A program made the translations under genes and the position numbers. A stretch of 64,000 bases of DNA, taken from positions 971 through 64,970 of the forward strand of contig JAXGOR010000004.1 in the NCBI GenBank assembly GCA_040767365.1, in the 5' to 3' direction. Position 1 is the stretch's first letter, and every line of letters starts with the position of its first letter. Of this stretch, positions 25,901-39,102 are shown in pieces. The notes beneath the pieces are model-generated. The model was not told where the DNA came from and made no database searches. It saw only the letters and a program-made list of their open reading frames with translations. This stretch comes from Clostridia bacterium (GTDB lineage Bacteria > Bacillota > Clostridia > Saccharofermentanales > DTU023).

Positions 25901-26509
25901 ATGCCAATGGTAGGAAAACCTGCCCCCATGTTCAAGGCGATGGCTTTTCATGAGGGCAAATTCAAGAAGGTCAAGCTGGAGGACTACAAAGATCAATGGG
26001 TTATGATTTGTTTCTATCCCGGCGATTTCACCTTTGTCTGAGCGACTGAGGTGGCTGCAGTTGCAGCAAGGTATGAAGAATTTGAGGCCCTGGGCGTACA
26101 GGTACTGTCCATCTCGGTTGACAGCGAGTTCGTCCATAAGATCTGGAACGATGTCGAACTGTCCAAAATCGCGGGCAAGGATGTCCCCTTCCCCATGCTT
26201 TCTGATTCATCCGGCGCCATCGGTGAACTCTTCGGGGTCTATGACCGCGAGGCCGGCGTCAACGTCAGGGGCCGCTTCCTGGTCGATCCCGACGGTGTGA
26301 TCCAGGCTATGGAAGTCCTGACACCGCCCGTCGGCCGAAATGTTTCCGAGGCCATCCGCCAGATCAAGGCCTACCAGCTGGTCCGCAGGACCAAGGGCGG
26401 GGAAGTCACTCCCTCAGGCTGGCAGGAGGGCGGCAAGACACTGAAGCCCGGGATCGGCCTTGTCGGCAAGATCGCCGATCATTGGACGGTCGCCGATTCC
26501 TACAAGTAG
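25901..26509 (+). CDS. prxU: peroxiredoxin (AhpC/Prx1 type) with in-frame TGA (selenocysteine) at the peroxidatic position, codon 47
   Basis: The ATG at 25901 reads [49 protein letters not shown](26039-26041)[28 protein letters not shown]... The same frame continues into ORF-track ORF 26051..26509. The TGA replaces the Cys of the FTFVCPTE motif. Confidence 0.8.
26054..26067 (+). promoter_or_regulatory. Candidate bacterial SECIS apical hairpin
   Basis: GCUGC-AGUU-GCAGC starts 12 nt after the UGA. The loop G/U lie at +22 to +24 from the U of UGA. Confidence 0.45.
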
Positions 26510-26545: not shown

Positions 26546-26956
26546 GTGATCCGGAATACGGTCGATCTTCTGAAAGATCACGGGATCAATCCTTCGAGCC
26601 AGAGGGTCAGGATCTACGACTATCTGGCGACTTCGGAGGACCACCCGACCGTTGATGACATCTACGCCCACTTGCAGAGGGAGGGTCATCTCTTTTCGCG
26701 CGCGACCGTCTACAACACGGTCAAGCTTTTCCTGAAGAAAGGATTGATCCGGACTGTCAGGGTCGAGGAGAAGGAGATGCGGTTCGATGCCGCCCCCGGC
26801 TTTCACGCCCACTTCAAATGTGGGAACTGTGGCGCCATCCTCGACATCGAGACGGAGAGGCCCCGACTCAAGGGTCACCCAGACTATGAGGTGCATGAGA
26901 CCAGCCTGGTCTTTGAGGGCCTCTGCCCTGACTGCCTTGAAAAAGAGGCGGACTGA
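26546..26956 (+). CDS. perR: Fur family transcriptional regulator, PerR-like
   Basis: 136 aa with a winged helix (SRATVYNTVKLF), HAHFKCGNCG and GLCPDC zinc motifs. GTG start 9 nt after GGGAGG, 37 nt downstream of the peroxiredoxin. Confidence 0.75.
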   Translation: MIRNTVDLLKDHGINPSSQRVRIYDYLATSEDHPTVDDIYAHLQREGHLFSRATVYNTVKLFLKKGLIRTVRVEEKEMRFDAAPGFHAHFKCGNCGAILDIETERPRLKGHPDYEVHETSLVFEGLCPDCLEKEAD

Positions 26957-28486: not shown

Positions 28487-28794
28487 TCCCCACTCCCCCT
28501 TCCACCCGCGCCCTGCCTGGGTCGGGACCGGATGTTTGCAATTCATTTGATACTAGCATAAGGGAATCCGGCCCGCGCATGGTCCATGGTGATGGGGACT
28601 TGCCAATCCTGGAACAATGGCTGATAATCAGTATGTGTTTTTTGTGTATGGATGAGTCATATGTAACATTGCCTGAACCGGTTTCCGGATGCGCCCCTTT
28701 GACAAGGTTATCCTGATGATTTTACGACGCCGCCCGCGCCGGTTGACTGACCATGTCCCTGACTCCGCCATCTTCAAAATCGAAGGAGGAGAAC

Positions 28795-29313
28795 ATGTCG
28801 CAACCTTGTCAATGCAAGACCCTCTCTGATGACGACCCCAGATACGAGGAATTACGGGCCTTCATAGAGAATGAGGAGAATAAGCAGGGAGTGGCTATGA
28901 CGGCCCTGCAGGAAGCGCAGCGCCTTTTTGGCTACCTGCCGCTGGAGGTCCACAAGTTCATCTCCAGCGAAACCGGGGTTCCCATCGCGGAACTCTACGG
29001 TGTCACCACCTTTTACAGCCAGTTCACCACCGTTCCCGAGGGGCAGCACCAGGTGCAGGTCTGTATGGGGACGGCTTGCTATGTGAAGGGCGCCCAGAAG
29101 GTGCTGGACAAGGTGGTCGAAGAGCTTGGCGTCGGGGTCGGCATGACAACGGAGGACCGTGTGTTCACCATCAATGCCGCCCGCTGTCTCGGTTGTTGCG
29201 GACTGGCCCCGGTCATGATGATTGACGGGGATGTCTACGCCAACCTGGACGATGTCGATGAGATCCCCTGCATTCTCGCCAATTACCGCAGAAGCAAGGT
29301 TTCAACTAAATAG
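28795..29313 (+). CDS. hydC: [FeFe]-hydrogenase NuoE-like [2Fe-2S] subunit
   Basis: CMGTACYVKG...CLGCCGLAP thioredoxin-like 2Fe-2S motif. ATG at 28795 follows AAGGAGG. Confidence 0.85.
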   Translation: MSQPCQCKTLSDDDPRYEELRAFIENEENKQGVAMTALQEAQRLFGYLPLEVHKFISSETGVPIAELYGVTTFYSQFTTVPEGQHQVQVCMGTACYVKGAQKVLDKVVEELGVGVGMTTEDRVFTINAARCLGCCGLAPVMMIDGDVYANLDDVDEIPCILANYRRSKVSTK

Positions 29314-29325
29314 AGGGGGCGGCAC

Positions 29326-31233
29326 ATGGATAAGCTGATGAAGAAGGAAGAGATGGGCGGCCGACTGGAGCCCCTGGCTTCCAGGGAAGCCCTGGACCGT
29401 CTGCGTGACGAATGGAAGGGGAAGCTGGAAAGGCCCGAACAGATCCGGGTGGTGGTCGGCATGGCCACCTGCGGCATCTCGGCCGGCGCCAGGCAGGTCT
29501 ACCAGGCCTTCTCCGAGGAATTCAAAAAACGTGGCCTGGACCAGGTCACCCTGGAAGAGGTGGGCTGTATCGGCATGTGCGTTTACGAGCCCATCGTCGA
29601 GGTCTATGAGGCCGGCAAGGACAAGGTCTCCTATATCCACGTCGACCCTTCTAAAGTGTCGACCATCGTGGAGGAGCATATCCTGGGCGGCAGGCCCTGC
29701 CCCAAGCTGACCCTGGCCGGACTGGACGATGACAGCGTCCTGCCGGATTGCACCGGTTTCGACGACCTCCCCTTCTACCGTAAACAGAAGCGGATCGTCC
29801 TCCACAACTGCGGTTTCATCAACCCGGAGGACGTCCGTGAATACATAGGCGTTGACGGCTACCAGGCCCTGGCCAAGGTCCTGACCGAGCTGTCACCCCA
29901 GGAAGTCATCGACCTGGTCTCCGCCTCCGGCCTCCGCGGCCGCGGCGGCGCCGGTTTCCCGACCGGCCTGAAATGGAAGTTCGCGGCCGACAACGAGGCA
30001 GATCAAAAATACATCATCTGCAACGCGGACGAGGGTGACCCGGGCGCCTTCATGGACCGGTCCGTCCTGGAGGGGGACCCGCACGCCATCATCGAAGCCC
30101 TGATCATCGGCGGCTACGCCATCGGGGCCTCCCAGGGCTGGCTCTATGTCCGGGCGGAATACCCGACTGCGGTCAAGCGCCTCCAGATCGCCATGGAGGA
30201 GGCCAAGGCCCTGGGCCTCCTGGGCAGGAATATCCTGAACAGCGGCTTTGACTTTGATATCCACATCCGCCTGGGGGCCGGCGCCTTTGTCTGCGGTGAG
30301 GAGACGGCCCTGATCGCCTCGATCGAGGGCAAGCGGGGCATGCCACGCAACAAGCCCCCCTTCCCCGCCAACAAGGGCCTCTGGGGCAAACCGACCATCA
30401 TCAATAATGTGGAGACCCTGGCCAATATCCCCGGCATCATCCGCCAGGGACCCGACTGGTTCCGGTCCATCGGGACGGAGAAGAGCTCCGGCACCAAGGT
30501 CTTCGCCCTGGGCGGCAAGATCACCAACACCGGCCTGGTTGAGGTTCCCATGGGGACCACCCTCCGCGAGGTCATCGAGGACATCGGGGGCGGCTGCCCC
30601 CATGGCAAGGAATTCAAGGCCGTCCAGACGGGCGGTCCTTCGGGCGGCTGCCTGACCCGGGAGGCCCTGGACGTCCCCATCGATTTCGATCGCCTGGTGG
30701 AACTGGGCTCCATGATGGGTTCGGGCGGCATGATCGTCATGGACGAGGACAACTGCATGGTCGACATCGCCCGCTTCTTCCTGGACTTCACCGTGGATGA
30801 GTCCTGCGGCCAGTGTGTCCCCTGCCGGGAAGGCACCAAGCGCATGCTGGAGATCCTGGACAAGATCACCTGCGGGGCCGCGGTCGAACAGGATCTGGAT
30901 GACCTGCTCGAGCTGGCCGGCAATATCAGCCTGACCTCGCTTTGCGCCCTGGGGCAGACCGCGCCCAACCCGGTCCTCTCCACCATGACGCATTTCATGG
31001 ACGAATACCGGGCCCACGTCATTGACAAAAGGTGTCCCTCCGGTGTCTGCCAGGACCTGCTCGGCTATACCATCAACGAGACCTGCCGCGGCTGTACCAA
31101 GTGCGTCCGCGTCTGTCCGGTCGACGCGATTTCGGGCAAGGTCAAGGAGCAGCACTACATTGACCAGGCGGTCTGCATCCGCTGCGGCGCCTGTTTCGAG
31201 GTCTGCCCCTTCGACTCGATCGATCGGCGCTAG
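29326..31233 (+). CDS. hydB: [FeFe]-hydrogenase NuoF-like flavoprotein subunit (FMN/NAD(P)H, Fe-S)
   Basis: 635 aa with GRGGAGFPTGLKWKF, ESCGQCVPCREG, an N-terminal 2Fe-2S domain and two C-terminal CxxCxxCxxxCP ferredoxin motifs. Confidence 0.9.
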   Translation: MDKLMKKEEMGGRLEPLASREALDRLRDEWKGKLERPEQIRVVVGMATCGISAGARQVYQAFSEEFKKRGLDQVTLEEVGCIGMCVYEPIVEVYEAGKDKVSYIHVDPSKVSTIVEEHILGGRPCPKLTLAGLDDDSVLPDCTGFDDLPFYRKQKRIVLHNCGFINPEDVREYIGVDGYQALAKVLTELSPQEVIDLVSASGLRGRGGAGFPTGLKWKFAADNEADQKYIICNADEGDPGAFMDRSVLEGDPHAIIEALIIGGYAIGASQGWLYVRAEYPTAVKRLQIAMEEAKALGLLGRNILNSGFDFDIHIRLGAGAFVCGEETALIASIEGKRGMPRNKPPFPANKGLWGKPTIINNVETLANIPGIIRQGPDWFRSIGTEKSSGTKVFALGGKITNTGLVEVPMGTTLREVIEDIGGGCPHGKEFKAVQTGGPSGGCLTREALDVPIDFDRLVELGSMMGSGGMIVMDEDNCMVDIARFFLDFTVDESCGQCVPCREGTKRMLEILDKITCGAAVEQDLDDLLELAGNISLTSLCALGQTAPNPVLSTMTHFMDEYRAHVIDKRCPSGVCQDLLGYTINETCRGCTKCVRVCPVDAISGKVKEQHYIDQAVCIRCGACFEVCPFDSIDRR

Positions 31234-31250: not shown

Positions 31251-33068
31251 ATGACAGAGAAAAAGACCAGCGTAACCATTACCATAAATAACCGCCAGAT
31301 AGAGGCCCATCCCAATGAGACCGTCTTCCAGGCGGCCCACCGGTCGGGTATCCGGATCCCTTCCCTTTGCTACCTGAAAGACACCAATGAGATCGCCGCC
31401 TGCCGGCTCTGCGTGGCCGAGGTCGATGTCAAGGGCAGGCCCATGCGGGGTCTGCCGGCCACCTGCGTGCTCAAGGTCGAGGAAGGCATGAATGTCAAGA
31501 CCAACACCCGGGTGGTCCGGCAGGCCGTCCGGATGAATCTGGAACTGATCCTGGCCAACCACGATATGAACTGCCCCACCTGCCTCCGCAACGGGACCTG
31601 TGAACTCCAGGCCCTCTGCGAGGAGCGCGGGATCACGGGCGTCCGTTTTGAAGGGGCCAAGCGGCCGGTCACCATCGACCAGCTGTCCCCCTCCATCGTC
31701 CGTGACACCAGCAAGTGCATCCTTTGTGGCCGCTGTGTCAGCACCTGCAACAAGGTGCAGGGCCTGGGGGTCCTCTCCTTCACCAACCGGGGCTTTGATA
31801 CCGAGGTCGGCCCGGCCTTCGACTTCAGCATGAATGACGTCAACTGCGTCTACTGCGGCCAGTGCATTGAGGCCTGCCCGGTGGCGGCCCTCCACGAGCG
31901 CCGCCATATCGATGATGTCTGGGATGCCCTGGACGACCCCGACAAGGTGGTCGTGGTCCAGACGGCCCCTGCCGTCCGCGCCTCCCTCGGCGAGGAGTTC
32001 AGCTACCCGGTGGGAACCCCGGTGACAGGAAAGATGACGGCGGCCTTGCGGCAGATAGGCTTTGACTATGTCTTTGACACCAACTTCTCAGCCGACCTGA
32101 CCATCAGCGAAGAGGCCAATGAACTGCTCCACCGTCTGAGGACGGGCGGGACCCTGCCCATGATCACCTCCTGTTCGCCGGGCTGGATCCGCTTCTGTGA
32201 GATGTACCATCCCGACTTCCTGCCCAACCTCTCGACCTGCAAGTCGCCCCAGAATATGATGGGCGCCCTGGTCAAGTCCTATTTCGCCCAGATCAAGGGG
32301 CTGGATCCCGAAAAGATCGTGGTCGTCTCCTGCATGCCCTGTATCGCGAAGAAATCCGAGGCGGACCGGGATGAACTCGAGGTCGACGGGATCAGGGATG
32401 TTGATTTCTCCCTGACCACCCGGGAGCTGGGTGACATGATCAAGCAGGCCGGCATCGACTTCCACGAACTGAAGGATGAGGAGCCTGACAGCGTCCTGGG
32501 CGACTATACCGGCGCGGCCGTCATCTTCGGCGTGACGGGCGGGGTCATGGAGGCGGCCCTTCGTACGGCGGCCGATGTGCTGACGGGCGAGGACCTGCCC
32601 AATTTCGAGTATGAGGCCGTCCGGGGACTGGAAGGGGTCAAGGAGGCCTCGGTCACCCTGCCGCTTGACGGGGTCCCCACCGAACTGAAGGTGGTCGTCT
32701 GCTCCAGTGTCAAACAGGCTGACGCCGTCTTGAAGGCGGTGAGGAGGGGCGAGAAGGACTGCCATTTCATCGAGGTCATGGCCTGCCCCGGCGGCTGCAT
32801 CCACGGGGGCGGCCAGTCCTACGTGTCTGCCAGGGACCGGATGGATGCGGACCCCCGCCTGGCCCGGGCCAAGGCCCTCTACAGCGAGGACGAACGCCAG
32901 GTCATACGGAAGTCGCATCAGAACCCCGAGCTGGTCCAGCTGATCGAGCGCTTCCTCGGGCAGCCCAACAGCCCGGTAGCCCACAAGTATCTGCATACCC
33001 ACTACCAGGCCAGGACCTATTACGATCAGATGACCCGGGAGGAATGTCTTGAAGAAGGACTCCTCTAG
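31251..33068 (+). CDS. hydA: [FeFe]-hydrogenase catalytic subunit (group A, multi-F-cluster N-terminus)
   Basis: 605 aa. H-cluster motif L2 is MPCIAKKSE and L3 is EVMACPGGCIHGGGQ. L1 reads TSCSPGW (variant). Confidence 0.9.
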   Translation: MTEKKTSVTITINNRQIEAHPNETVFQAAHRSGIRIPSLCYLKDTNEIAACRLCVAEVDVKGRPMRGLPATCVLKVEEGMNVKTNTRVVRQAVRMNLELILANHDMNCPTCLRNGTCELQALCEERGITGVRFEGAKRPVTIDQLSPSIVRDTSKCILCGRCVSTCNKVQGLGVLSFTNRGFDTEVGPAFDFSMNDVNCVYCGQCIEACPVAALHERRHIDDVWDALDDPDKVVVVQTAPAVRASLGEEFSYPVGTPVTGKMTAALRQIGFDYVFDTNFSADLTISEEANELLHRLRTGGTLPMITSCSPGWIRFCEMYHPDFLPNLSTCKSPQNMMGALVKSYFAQIKGLDPEKIVVVSCMPCIAKKSEADRDELEVDGIRDVDFSLTTRELGDMIKQAGIDFHELKDEEPDSVLGDYTGAAVIFGVTGGVMEAALRTAADVLTGEDLPNFEYEAVRGLEGVKEASVTLPLDGVPTELKVVVCSSVKQADAVLKAVRRGEKDCHFIEVMACPGGCIHGGGQSYVSARDRMDADPRLARAKALYSEDERQVIRKSHQNPELVQLIERFLGQPNSPVAHKYLHTHYQARTYYDQMTREECLEEGLL

Positions 33069-37244: not shown

Positions 37245-39102
37245 ATGGACGGCATTACCGCGCACGCCTTAAGACCCGAATTGGACAGCCTGCTGGCCGG
37301 GTCGCAGATCGACCGGATCTCCATGGAGGACCGCCATACGCTTAAGCTCCTCCTCTTTGCCCCCGACAGGCGGAAATATTCCCTGAGTCTGGCCGCGAAT
37401 CCGTCGCGCCCCGGCCTTTCCCTGACCCTCCCGTCAGGGGGCCGCGGCCTGAATCCACCGCCGGCCTTTGTCATGTACCTGCGCAAACACCTGGGTCGCG
37501 CCCGCTTGCTGGCTGTCGAATCACCGCCCTGGGAAAGGGTTTTCAACTTCCGGTTCCTGGCCCTGGACGAGCTGGGCGATGAGCTGCCGCTGGAACTGGT
37601 CTTCGAGTGCATGCCCCGGACCGCCAACCTGATCCTCCTCAACCGGGACCAGGTCATTATGGGCGCCTTGCGGACCGTCGACCACAGGGTCAACCGCTAC
37701 CGGGAGATCCTCCCGGCCCACCCCTACCTCCCCCCGCCCCCCCAGAAGGGTCTGGAACCCCAGGCCTGCGTCGGGCTCCCTGCCCACGATTGGGAGGCGC
37801 GTCTGGACCCGGCCCTGCCCGTCGGCCGGGCCGTCTCGGGCGCCCTGGCCGGCTTCTCCCCCCGGCTCGGCAGGGAAGCCGCCTACCGGGCGGGTCTCGA
37901 CCCCAGCCTTCCCCTGAATGCCCTCAAGGAGGGGGAACGGGGGAAGCTGCGTGAGGCCGCCCTCTCCCTCTGCCGGGAGGCCCTTGACGGACCCCTGGCG
38001 CCCGCCATCTACTATGACGGGCCGGAGGGTCCCGCCCGGCGGCCGCTGGCGGTCCATGCCTCCCCTGACCCATCTTCCCTGGTCCGTCCCCTACCCCACC
38101 ATGACCCAGGCCCTGGCCAGCTACCAGGAGGAAACCGCCCGGCTGGACCGGTTCGACAGGCGGAGGAGGTCCCTGGCGAAACGGATTGGCGAACAGAGCA
38201 AGCGGGTCCAAAAAAGCGGCAGCTCCATGGAGGCGGACCTGGCCGAAGGGAGGGAGGCGGACCAGGACCGGCTGAAGGGGGAACTGATCCTGGCCTATCT
38301 CCACACCATCCCCCCGGGCGCTGAAAAGGTCGAGCTTGAGAACTATCACGAATCAGGCGCCCCGGTCTCCTGCGCCCTGGATCCCCGTTGGTCACCCGCG
38401 GAAAATGCCAACCGCTACTTTGCCCGGGCCAGACGGAAGGAGAGAAAACTCCAGGCGGCCGGCCGCCTCCTGGCCAAGGACCTGGACGAGCTTGCCTGGC
38501 TGGAGTCGCTGGCGGCGGCCACCGGCTACGCCGAGTCCGAGGAGGACCTCCTGGCCCTGGAACAGGAATACAGGGCCCGGCCGGAGAAGAAGGCAGGCAA
38601 GGAAGAGGAACCGGATCAGCGGGATTCGCTCCCCGGCCGGCCCGCCTCCAAAAAGAGACGGATGCGGCAGACCTTCGGGGACTACCGGAAAAAACAGGAC
38701 AGGACGCCCGCCCGCGGCAGCGGCCTGCCAGCCCCGCCCCGCGCCTTCAAGTCCTCTGACGGTTTCAGCCTGCTTTCCGGCCGCAACAACCTGCAAAATG
38801 ACAGCCTGCTCCGCAAGGCCGCCCGCCAGGACCTCTGGTTTCATGTCAAAAACCGGCCTGGCTCGCATGTGATCCTGGTCACCGGGGGCCGGCCCGTCCC
38901 CGACAGGGCCCTGGAGGAGGCCGCCGGCATCGCGGCCTGGTATTCGGATGCCGGCCGGTCGGGGGCCGCCCTGGAGGTCGATTACGCCCAGGTGGGGGAC
39001 GTAAAAAAAATCCCGGGCTCCCGGCCGGGAAATGTGACCTACGACAAATTCAAGACCCTCTATGTCCGGCCCCTGGACCCGGCTGACCTGGCCGGATCCT
39101 GA
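37245..39102 (+). pseudogene. rqcH: ribosome quality-control factor RqcH (FbpA/NFACT family), split by a frameshift near 38062-38065
   Basis: The NFACT-N half (MDGITAHALRPELDSLLAGSQIDRISMEDRHTLKLLL...) is in the frame of 37245. The coiled-coil and NFACT-R half (...FKSSDGFSLLSGRNNLQNDSLL...FHVKNRPGSHVIL...) is in the +1 frame of ORF 37918..39102. Confidence 0.75.

Follow-up and report, generated by a model that had tools for sequence, protein, structure and literature searches.

The window analysed here is a stretch of 64,000 nucleotides from a Clostridia bacterium (contig JAXGOR010000004.1, positions 971 to 64,970, assembly GCA_040767365.1), with a G+C content of 61.5%. It carries a three-gene hydCBA cluster whose products correspond to the subunits of trimeric HydABC-type [FeFe]-hydrogenases. 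The subject of this report is the product of hydA, the catalytic subunit, in which the L1 motif of the active-site H-cluster reads TSCSPGW, so that serine stands where the L1 consensus, TSCCPxW, has its second cysteine. The three genes lie adjacent to one another on one strand, with intergenic gaps of 12 and 17 nucleotides (nt). In window coordinates they are:

28753 to 29313, + strand: hydC, 186 amino acids (aa), a NuoE-like thioredoxin-type [2Fe-2S] subunit (Pfam 2Fe-2S_thioredx, E = 5e-44)
29326 to 31233, + strand: hydB, 635 aa, a NuoF-like flavin mononucleotide (FMN)/nicotinamide adenine dinucleotide (NAD) subunit (Pfam Complex1_51K, NADH_4Fe-4S and SLBB)
31251 to 33068, + strand: hydA, 605 aa, an M3-type [FeFe]-hydrogenase catalytic subunit

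HydB also has an N-terminal [2Fe-2S] domain (Pfam 2Fe-2S_thioredx, residues 39–117) and a C-terminal 2x[4Fe-4S] ferredoxin domain (two Pfam Fer4 matches, residues 584–632), the pair of domains that sets bifurcating HydB subunits apart from non-bifurcating ones. In HydA, matches to Fer2_4, NADH-G_4Fe-4S_3, Fer4, Fe_hyd_lg_C and Fe_hyd_SSU give the layout of a [2Fe-2S] ferredoxin domain, a NuoG-type region for a His-ligated [4Fe-4S] cluster, a 2x[4Fe-4S] domain, the H-domain and a small-subunit domain. The H-domain carries the family signature (PF02906, Fe_hyd_lg_C, E = 1.9e-94; PF02256, small subunit, E = 2.5e-20). The whole protein scores 532 bits against TIGR02512 (cutoff 406) and 839.7 bits against the NCBIfam model NF040763, FeFe_hydrog_A6 (cutoff 765), the latter match covering model positions 1–571 of 571. 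Many close homologs with the TSCSP motif carry the name of this model in NCBI, "NADH-dependent [FeFe] hydrogenase, group A6"; NF040763 is an annotation family and no mechanistic class, and its name is silent on both bifurcation and the Ser ligand.

The preliminary description of this locus, made from the sequence alone, took the genetic context to be that of a standard HydABC enzyme. This was borne out by the adjacency of the three genes and by their best matches among solved structures, which are in every case chains of the Acetobacterium woodii HydABC complex: 7q4v_A for HydA (HMMER, E = 2e-207), 7q4v_B for HydB (E = 7.6e-243, residues 44–634 against 11–598) and 7q4v_C for HydC (E = 3.9e-45). 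The AlphaFold2 (AF2) model of HydA has a mean predicted local distance difference test score (pLDDT) of 74.6, with most of the H-domain at 84–96. A Foldseek search with this model gave A. woodii HydA1 (7q4w_A) as the top match at a template modelling (TM) score of 0.83, a score also reached by CpI, the hydrogenase of Clostridium pasteurianum. The A. woodii homolog has been shown to carry out H2-dependent, NAD(P)-coupled ferredoxin reduction (Katsyv et al. 2023, PMC10021017). By analogy with that enzyme, hydC-hydB-hydA is an ordinary operon for a trimeric, flavin-based, NAD(P)/ferredoxin-coupled [FeFe]-hydrogenase, presumably of the electron-bifurcating type, in an uncultured Clostridia bacterium akin to Mageeibacillus and other Saccharofermentanales. 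The nearest genomes are metagenome-assembled genomes (MAGs) of uncultured Mageeibacillus, Saccharofermentanales and "Clostridiales DTU023", at no more than 95% amino-acid identity. Many of their names read, in our interpretation, as those of anaerobic-digester and bioreactor bins.

The H-cluster motifs and the codons that matter for the argument lie within hydA as follows:

32166 to 32186, + strand: L1 motif TSCSPGW (T306 S307 C308 S309 P310 G311 W312), ACC TCC TGT TCG CCG GGC TGG, in frame with hydA
32172 to 32174, + strand: TGT codon of Cys308, the proton-relay Cys, equivalent to CpI C299 by alignment
32175 to 32177, + strand: TCG codon of Ser309, aligned with the cubane ligand CpI C300 and with A. 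woodii Ser301
32196 to 32198, + strand: TGT codon of Cys316, at the position of CpI Ala307
32334 to 32360, + strand: L2 motif MPCIAKKSE, in which Cys364 corresponds to the ligand CpI C355 and Lys367 to K358
32772 to 32816, + strand: L3 motif EVMACPGGCIHGGGQ, in which Cys512 corresponds to CpI C499 and Cys516 to the bridging C503

Reading of the codons placed the L1 motif in frame within the 605-aa open reading frame (ORF), as first described. HMMER aligned the L1 region without gaps to TSCCPGW of CpI, to TSCCPSW of HydA1 from Thermoanaerobacter kivui and to TSCSPGW of A. woodii HydA1, and in a MAFFT alignment of 212 sequences Ser309 fell in the CpI Cys300 column. The two alignments therefore agree with the earlier assignment of Ser309 to a ligand position of the [4Fe-4S] subcluster, the cubane. 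In the MAFFT alignment the equivalents of C299, C355, C499 and C503 are all Cys, so the proton-relay Cys is retained as Cys308. The proton-pathway equivalents of C299, S319, E279, E282 and R286 are all conserved, and so are those of M353, K358 and M497. The L2 and L3 motifs had been called canonical, and they are: both the MPCxxKxxE and the ExMACxxGCxxGGGQ consensus of group A are present, with the three remaining Cys ligands. HydA thus departs from the group A consensus in L1, with Ser in place of the second Cys. Natural members of group A with this substitution are documented, and it is no bar to membership. HydA also has the two features that define the Ser-ligand subclass, Ser at the CpI C300 position and Cys at the other ligand positions. 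Among other loci with TSCSP, some have an L3 variant with MGC or MCC for MAC, and one has an N-masked stretch there.

Serine at position 309 is widely shared. TSCSPGW was found in 120 of the 120 closest protein clusters at 90% identity, whose members are 66–92% identical to the query. Related loci in species-representative genomes number 54; TSCSPGW stands in 39 of them and TSCCPAW in the other 15, and the loci with Ser span Clostridia, Tissierellia, Oscillospiraceae and Acholeplasmataceae. Together, these 39 loci and the window use six codons for the serine: TCA (19), TCG (12), AGT (6), TCT (1), TCC (1) and AGC (1). This diversity is, on the evidence of the codons, the mark of long-standing purifying selection on serine. 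AGY codons are confined to seven loci (L019, L021, L022, L028, L032, L033 and L034), TCN being used in the other TSCSP loci; the AGY lineages, all Clostridia, carry A, V or I in the CpI-307 column. Since AGY and TCN codons are both used and each is one step from TGY, there is a hint of more than one Cys-to-Ser origin, and the codons suggest at least two independent replacements. Fitch parsimony on a neighbour-joining (NJ) tree gave at least 21 Cys/Ser changes, a count that is qualitative only, the tree being rough.

The closest characterised relative is HydA1 of the A. woodii HydABC(D) complex (PDB 8A5E, 7Q4V and 7Q4W; PMC10021017), which has the same TSCSPGW motif (sequence LPMITSCSPGWIKFIE) and the same M3 architecture. 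The two proteins are 55% identical; the window HydA is slightly longer at its C-terminus (605 aa against 583 aa), and its Cys316 corresponds to an Ile in A. woodii HydA1. The A. woodii complex is HydABC(D), and a HydD-like gene was not identified beside the window operon. Katsyv et al. (2023, PMC10021017) describe Ser301 of the A. woodii enzyme as standing in for one of the cysteines that ligate the H-cluster cubane. Bifurcation by the purified complex proceeds at 4.1 U/mg, and its Fourier-transform infrared (FTIR) spectra contain the canonical states Hox, Hred, Hox-CO, HoxH and Hhyd (PMC10021017). The HydA of T. kivui HydABC (PDB 8A6T), 48% identical to the window protein, and CpI (e.g. 4XDC, 3C8Y), 44% identical, share the fold, the other H-cluster ligands and the proton pathway. 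Unlike the window HydA, both have the canonical TSCCPxW motif and an all-cysteine cubane. CpI is moreover monomeric and ferredoxin-dependent, whereas the window HydA is encoded in a trimeric HydABC-type operon. The TSCSPGW motif has also been reported for hydrogenases of the Melainabacteria ACD20, in trimeric "confurcating" loci (Di Rienzi et al. 2013, PMC3787301). The two ACD20 proteins concerned are also reported to have one L3 Cys replaced by Ile (PMC3787301), whereas L3 of the window HydA is intact.

To gauge how common the variant is, we used the best 149 cluster representatives at 50% identity from a library of 1.84 billion proteins. The CpI C300 column is occupied by Ser in 32 of the 149 (21%) and by Cys in 114. 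Among the 116 representatives that keep the proton-relay Cys and all other ligands, the numbers are 17 and 97. The count of 21% agrees with the value given by Kertess et al. (2017, PMC5855289), who put Ser at this position in about 20% of sequences, citing Winkler et al. 2013. On the NJ tree the window HydA and A. woodii HydA1 fall in one all-Ser clade. Second-sphere positions that might separate Ser-type from Cys-type proteins gave weak trends only, for example Gly for Ala at CpI-302. The top-scoring representative, P0121 (4122 aa), scores 2007 bits over seven separate hydrogenase-matching stretches. It was left out of the alignment, being either an artefact of gene calling or assembly or else a highly unusual polyprotein with multiple H-domains.

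The preliminary description had presented the L1 variant as unusual, adding that it would be unremarkable if TSCSP proved to be common in characterised active enzymes. The comparison speaks against the first of these views, and its outcome is the one named in the second: the motif is found in A. woodii HydA1, a bifurcating enzyme that is both active and solved, as well as in the fifth or so of sequences just described. The literature already contains the variant itself, an estimate of how frequent it is, and an example of it in a bifurcating hydrogenase that is active and structurally characterised. Because the identical motif occurs in the purified, active and solved A. woodii enzyme and in about one-fifth of sequences, we regard the window protein as an ordinary example of a known Ser-ligand variant. 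With a probability of roughly 0.88, it is a HydABC-type hydrogenase of the natural Ser-ligand (TSCSPGW) subclass, for which a normal H-cluster and catalytic activity would be expected by analogy with A. woodii. In such an enzyme Ser309 would occupy the fourth-ligand position of the [4Fe-4S] subcluster, [4Fe-4S]H, at one Fe, and Cys364, Cys512 and the bridging Cys516 would supply the other three cubane ligands. Cys308 would keep its role as the last proton-relay residue, to the azadithiolate (adt) amine. Electrons would pass by way of the HydA F-clusters to the FMN site of HydB, the route described for HydABC of A. woodii and T. kivui. The sequence, its conservation, the homology, the gene order and the fold are shown directly, and Fe-O(Ser) ligation, activity and bifurcation are carried over from the A. 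woodii enzyme.

Several points weigh against this assignment or limit how far the A. woodii comparison carries. The map of the reduced A. woodii enzyme is at 3.4 Å and its models were started from AlphaFold (PMC10021017). Because of that resolution, the "serine ligand" of A. woodii is a positional assignment, and the Fe-O(Ser) bond is not seen at atomic resolution. The engineered CrHydA1 variant C115S has the same Cys-to-Ser swap at the ligand equivalent to CpI C300 (Kertess et al. 2017, PMC5855289); it lost most of its [4Fe-4S] cluster, showed no [2Fe] insertion and was inactive (PMC5855289). As for bifurcation, the NCBIfam product name "NADH-dependent" does not by itself establish it. The hydEFG maturase genes were not found within the window, although their linkage to hydCBA is not required. 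The inactivity of C115S, set against the activity of the natural A. woodii TSCSP enzyme, indicates that the natural scaffold must accommodate Ser, and that Ser is no universal neutral replacement for Cys.

Could the serine be an artefact, either a sequencing or assembly error or a sign that hydA is a decaying pseudogene? A probable indel does occur once in another part of the window: compared with a related MAG locus (L001), there is a 2-nt gap, which splits an NFACT gene. It was correctly pointed out in the preliminary description that TGY to TCG takes two substitutions. A base-calling error is countered by the 39 independent loci that encode Ser with six different codons, and by the 120 of 120 clusters in which it is conserved; sequencing error was rejected on these grounds. 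The hydA ORF is moreover intact and full length, its other catalytic residues are all conserved, and the same motif is found in a purified, active enzyme, so that we give practically no credence to error or decay. It is also extremely unlikely that HydA is a non-catalytic or sensory paralogue, HydS-like and of group C or D. Deviation from the L1 consensus is established as one hallmark of sensory and atypical groups. The window protein, however, retains the proton-relay Cys together with E279, E282, R286, S319, M353, K358 and M497. Pfam detects no PAS or other signalling domain in it, its gene shares the hydCBA operon with a hydB that is full length and of the bifurcating type, and its closest characterised relative is catalytic. 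A different arrangement of the active site, in which Cys308 moves over to become the cubane ligand, leaving Ser309 as a bystander or a new proton relay, is very unlikely, although it has some precedent: C114 was suggested as a possible alternative ligand in CrHydA1 C115A (Kertess et al. 2017, PMC5855289), and a 3.4 Å map cannot rigorously separate the two residues. The published A. woodii model nevertheless puts Ser301 at the ligand position, and the canonical FTIR states of that enzyme include HoxH and Hhyd, which need a working proton pathway. Motif length and flanks (TS-C-S-PGW) are unchanged, and the backbone register is therefore conserved. Strong purifying selection on Ser would likewise be unexpected for a bystander.

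The remaining alternative concerns Cys316. The preliminary description had counted this additional Cys, in GWIRFCE, as five residues beyond the Trp of the motif; it is in fact four residues after Trp312, aligned to CpI Ala307. It had also proposed that the variant implies either Ser ligation or a re-wired cluster. The first half of that proposal agrees with what the A. woodii study describes for the identical motif. The second half, in which Cys316 and not Ser309 would give the fourth thiolate to [4Fe-4S]H in the subclade, is highly improbable. In its favour, Cys316 is near-invariant among close relatives, being found in 116 of the 120 close homologs and in more than 90% of sequences in the alignment of the close subclade. 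In the wider family, however, Cys at this position goes with neither state of the ligand: it is present in 2 of 17 Ser-type and 8 of 97 Cys-type representatives (Fisher p = 0.64), and is thus absent from 15 of the 17 Ser-type clusters. Four close relatives (L010, L019, P0008 and P0016) keep Ser309 with Ala at the 316 position, and the A. woodii enzyme is active, with a normal H-cluster, with Ile there. Residues 310–319 are helical in the AF2 model, the helix starting right after Ser309, which would place residue 316 about two turns, or some 10 Å as estimated from the AF2 secondary structure, from the ligand position. Re-wiring through Cys316 is unlikely because of the Ile in A. woodii, the lack of association with Ser and the helix offset, and Cys316 was rejected as a compensating ligand. 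Just as improbable is a softer version, restricted to the Saccharofermentanales/Tissierellia subclade, in which Cys316 together with Ser309 would act as an alternative or redox-switchable fourth [4Fe-4S]H ligand. If true, the surroundings of the cubane would differ from those in A. woodii HydA1, and the cluster potential or the oxygen response would be tuned.

We also scanned all H-domain columns (about 375) for other cysteines that might accompany the serine, and no Cys is systematically gained with Ser300 in the 17 Ser-type as against the 97 Cys-type representatives. Cys at CpI-481 was found in 3 of 17 against 0 of 97 (p = 0.003) and Cys at CpI-498 in 3 of 17 against 1 of 97 (p = 0.01 uncorrected), neither of which is significant over a scan of this size. 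At CpI-321, Cys is frequent in Ser-type and Cys-type representatives alike (13 of 17 and 54 of 97, p = 0.18). At that position the window protein has Cys330 (32238–32240, CpI Ala321 position), which is invariant in the close subclade and is Cys in A. woodii too; across the wider family it is not statistically linked to the Ser variant. In L028, L032 and P0126, a small Ser-type subclade, L3 reads EIMCC or EVMCC for EVMAC, with an extra Cys just before the CpI C499 ligand, an arrangement that may be due to chance.

For annotation, the consequence is that TSCSPGW should be treated neither as a defective H-cluster motif nor as an exotic one. The motif is the mark of a large, natural subclass among the trimeric HydABC-type hydrogenases, one member of which is characterised and active. 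Why natural scaffolds tolerate Ser when engineered CrHydA1 C115S does not is a question already recognised in the literature. Ligation by Ser may also tune the potential of the cubane or the catalytic bias of the enzyme. The window HydA is one further member of the Ser class and brings no new leverage on Ser tolerance.

The rest of the window is made up of ordinary housekeeping genes, among them those for malic enzyme, H+-pyrophosphatase, ThrRS, IleRS, RuvB, RecJ, RelA/SpoT, RNase J and HemZ, along with a xanthine-dehydrogenase-type molybdoenzyme. A second hydA was not found within the window, and the sole radical-SAM gene there is that for HemZ. Upstream of hydCBA, a peroxiredoxin gene (25901–26509, + strand) has an in-frame TGA at 26039–26041, exactly at the position of the peroxidatic Cys. 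The related MAG loci L001, L003 and L012 have the TGA as well, and directly after it a hairpin is predicted. When the TGA is replaced by a Cys, the 202-aa product scores 345.7 bits against NCBIfam NF040737, PrxU (cutoff 270), a known selenocysteine peroxiredoxin family; ORF callers shorten the gene to 26051–26509. It is followed by a gene for a PerR/Fur-family regulator (26546–26956). Downstream of hydA, an NFACT/RqcH-like gene (fibronectin-binding protein A family) lies in two overlapping frames, 37245–38324 and 37918–39102 (+ strand). NFACT_N profile positions 1–256 are matched in the first ORF, and positions 275–438 plus NFACT-R in the second. The 2-nt gap mentioned above lies near 38045, relative to L001, a 95%-related MAG locus, and the split would be due either to a true frameshift or to an indel introduced during assembly.

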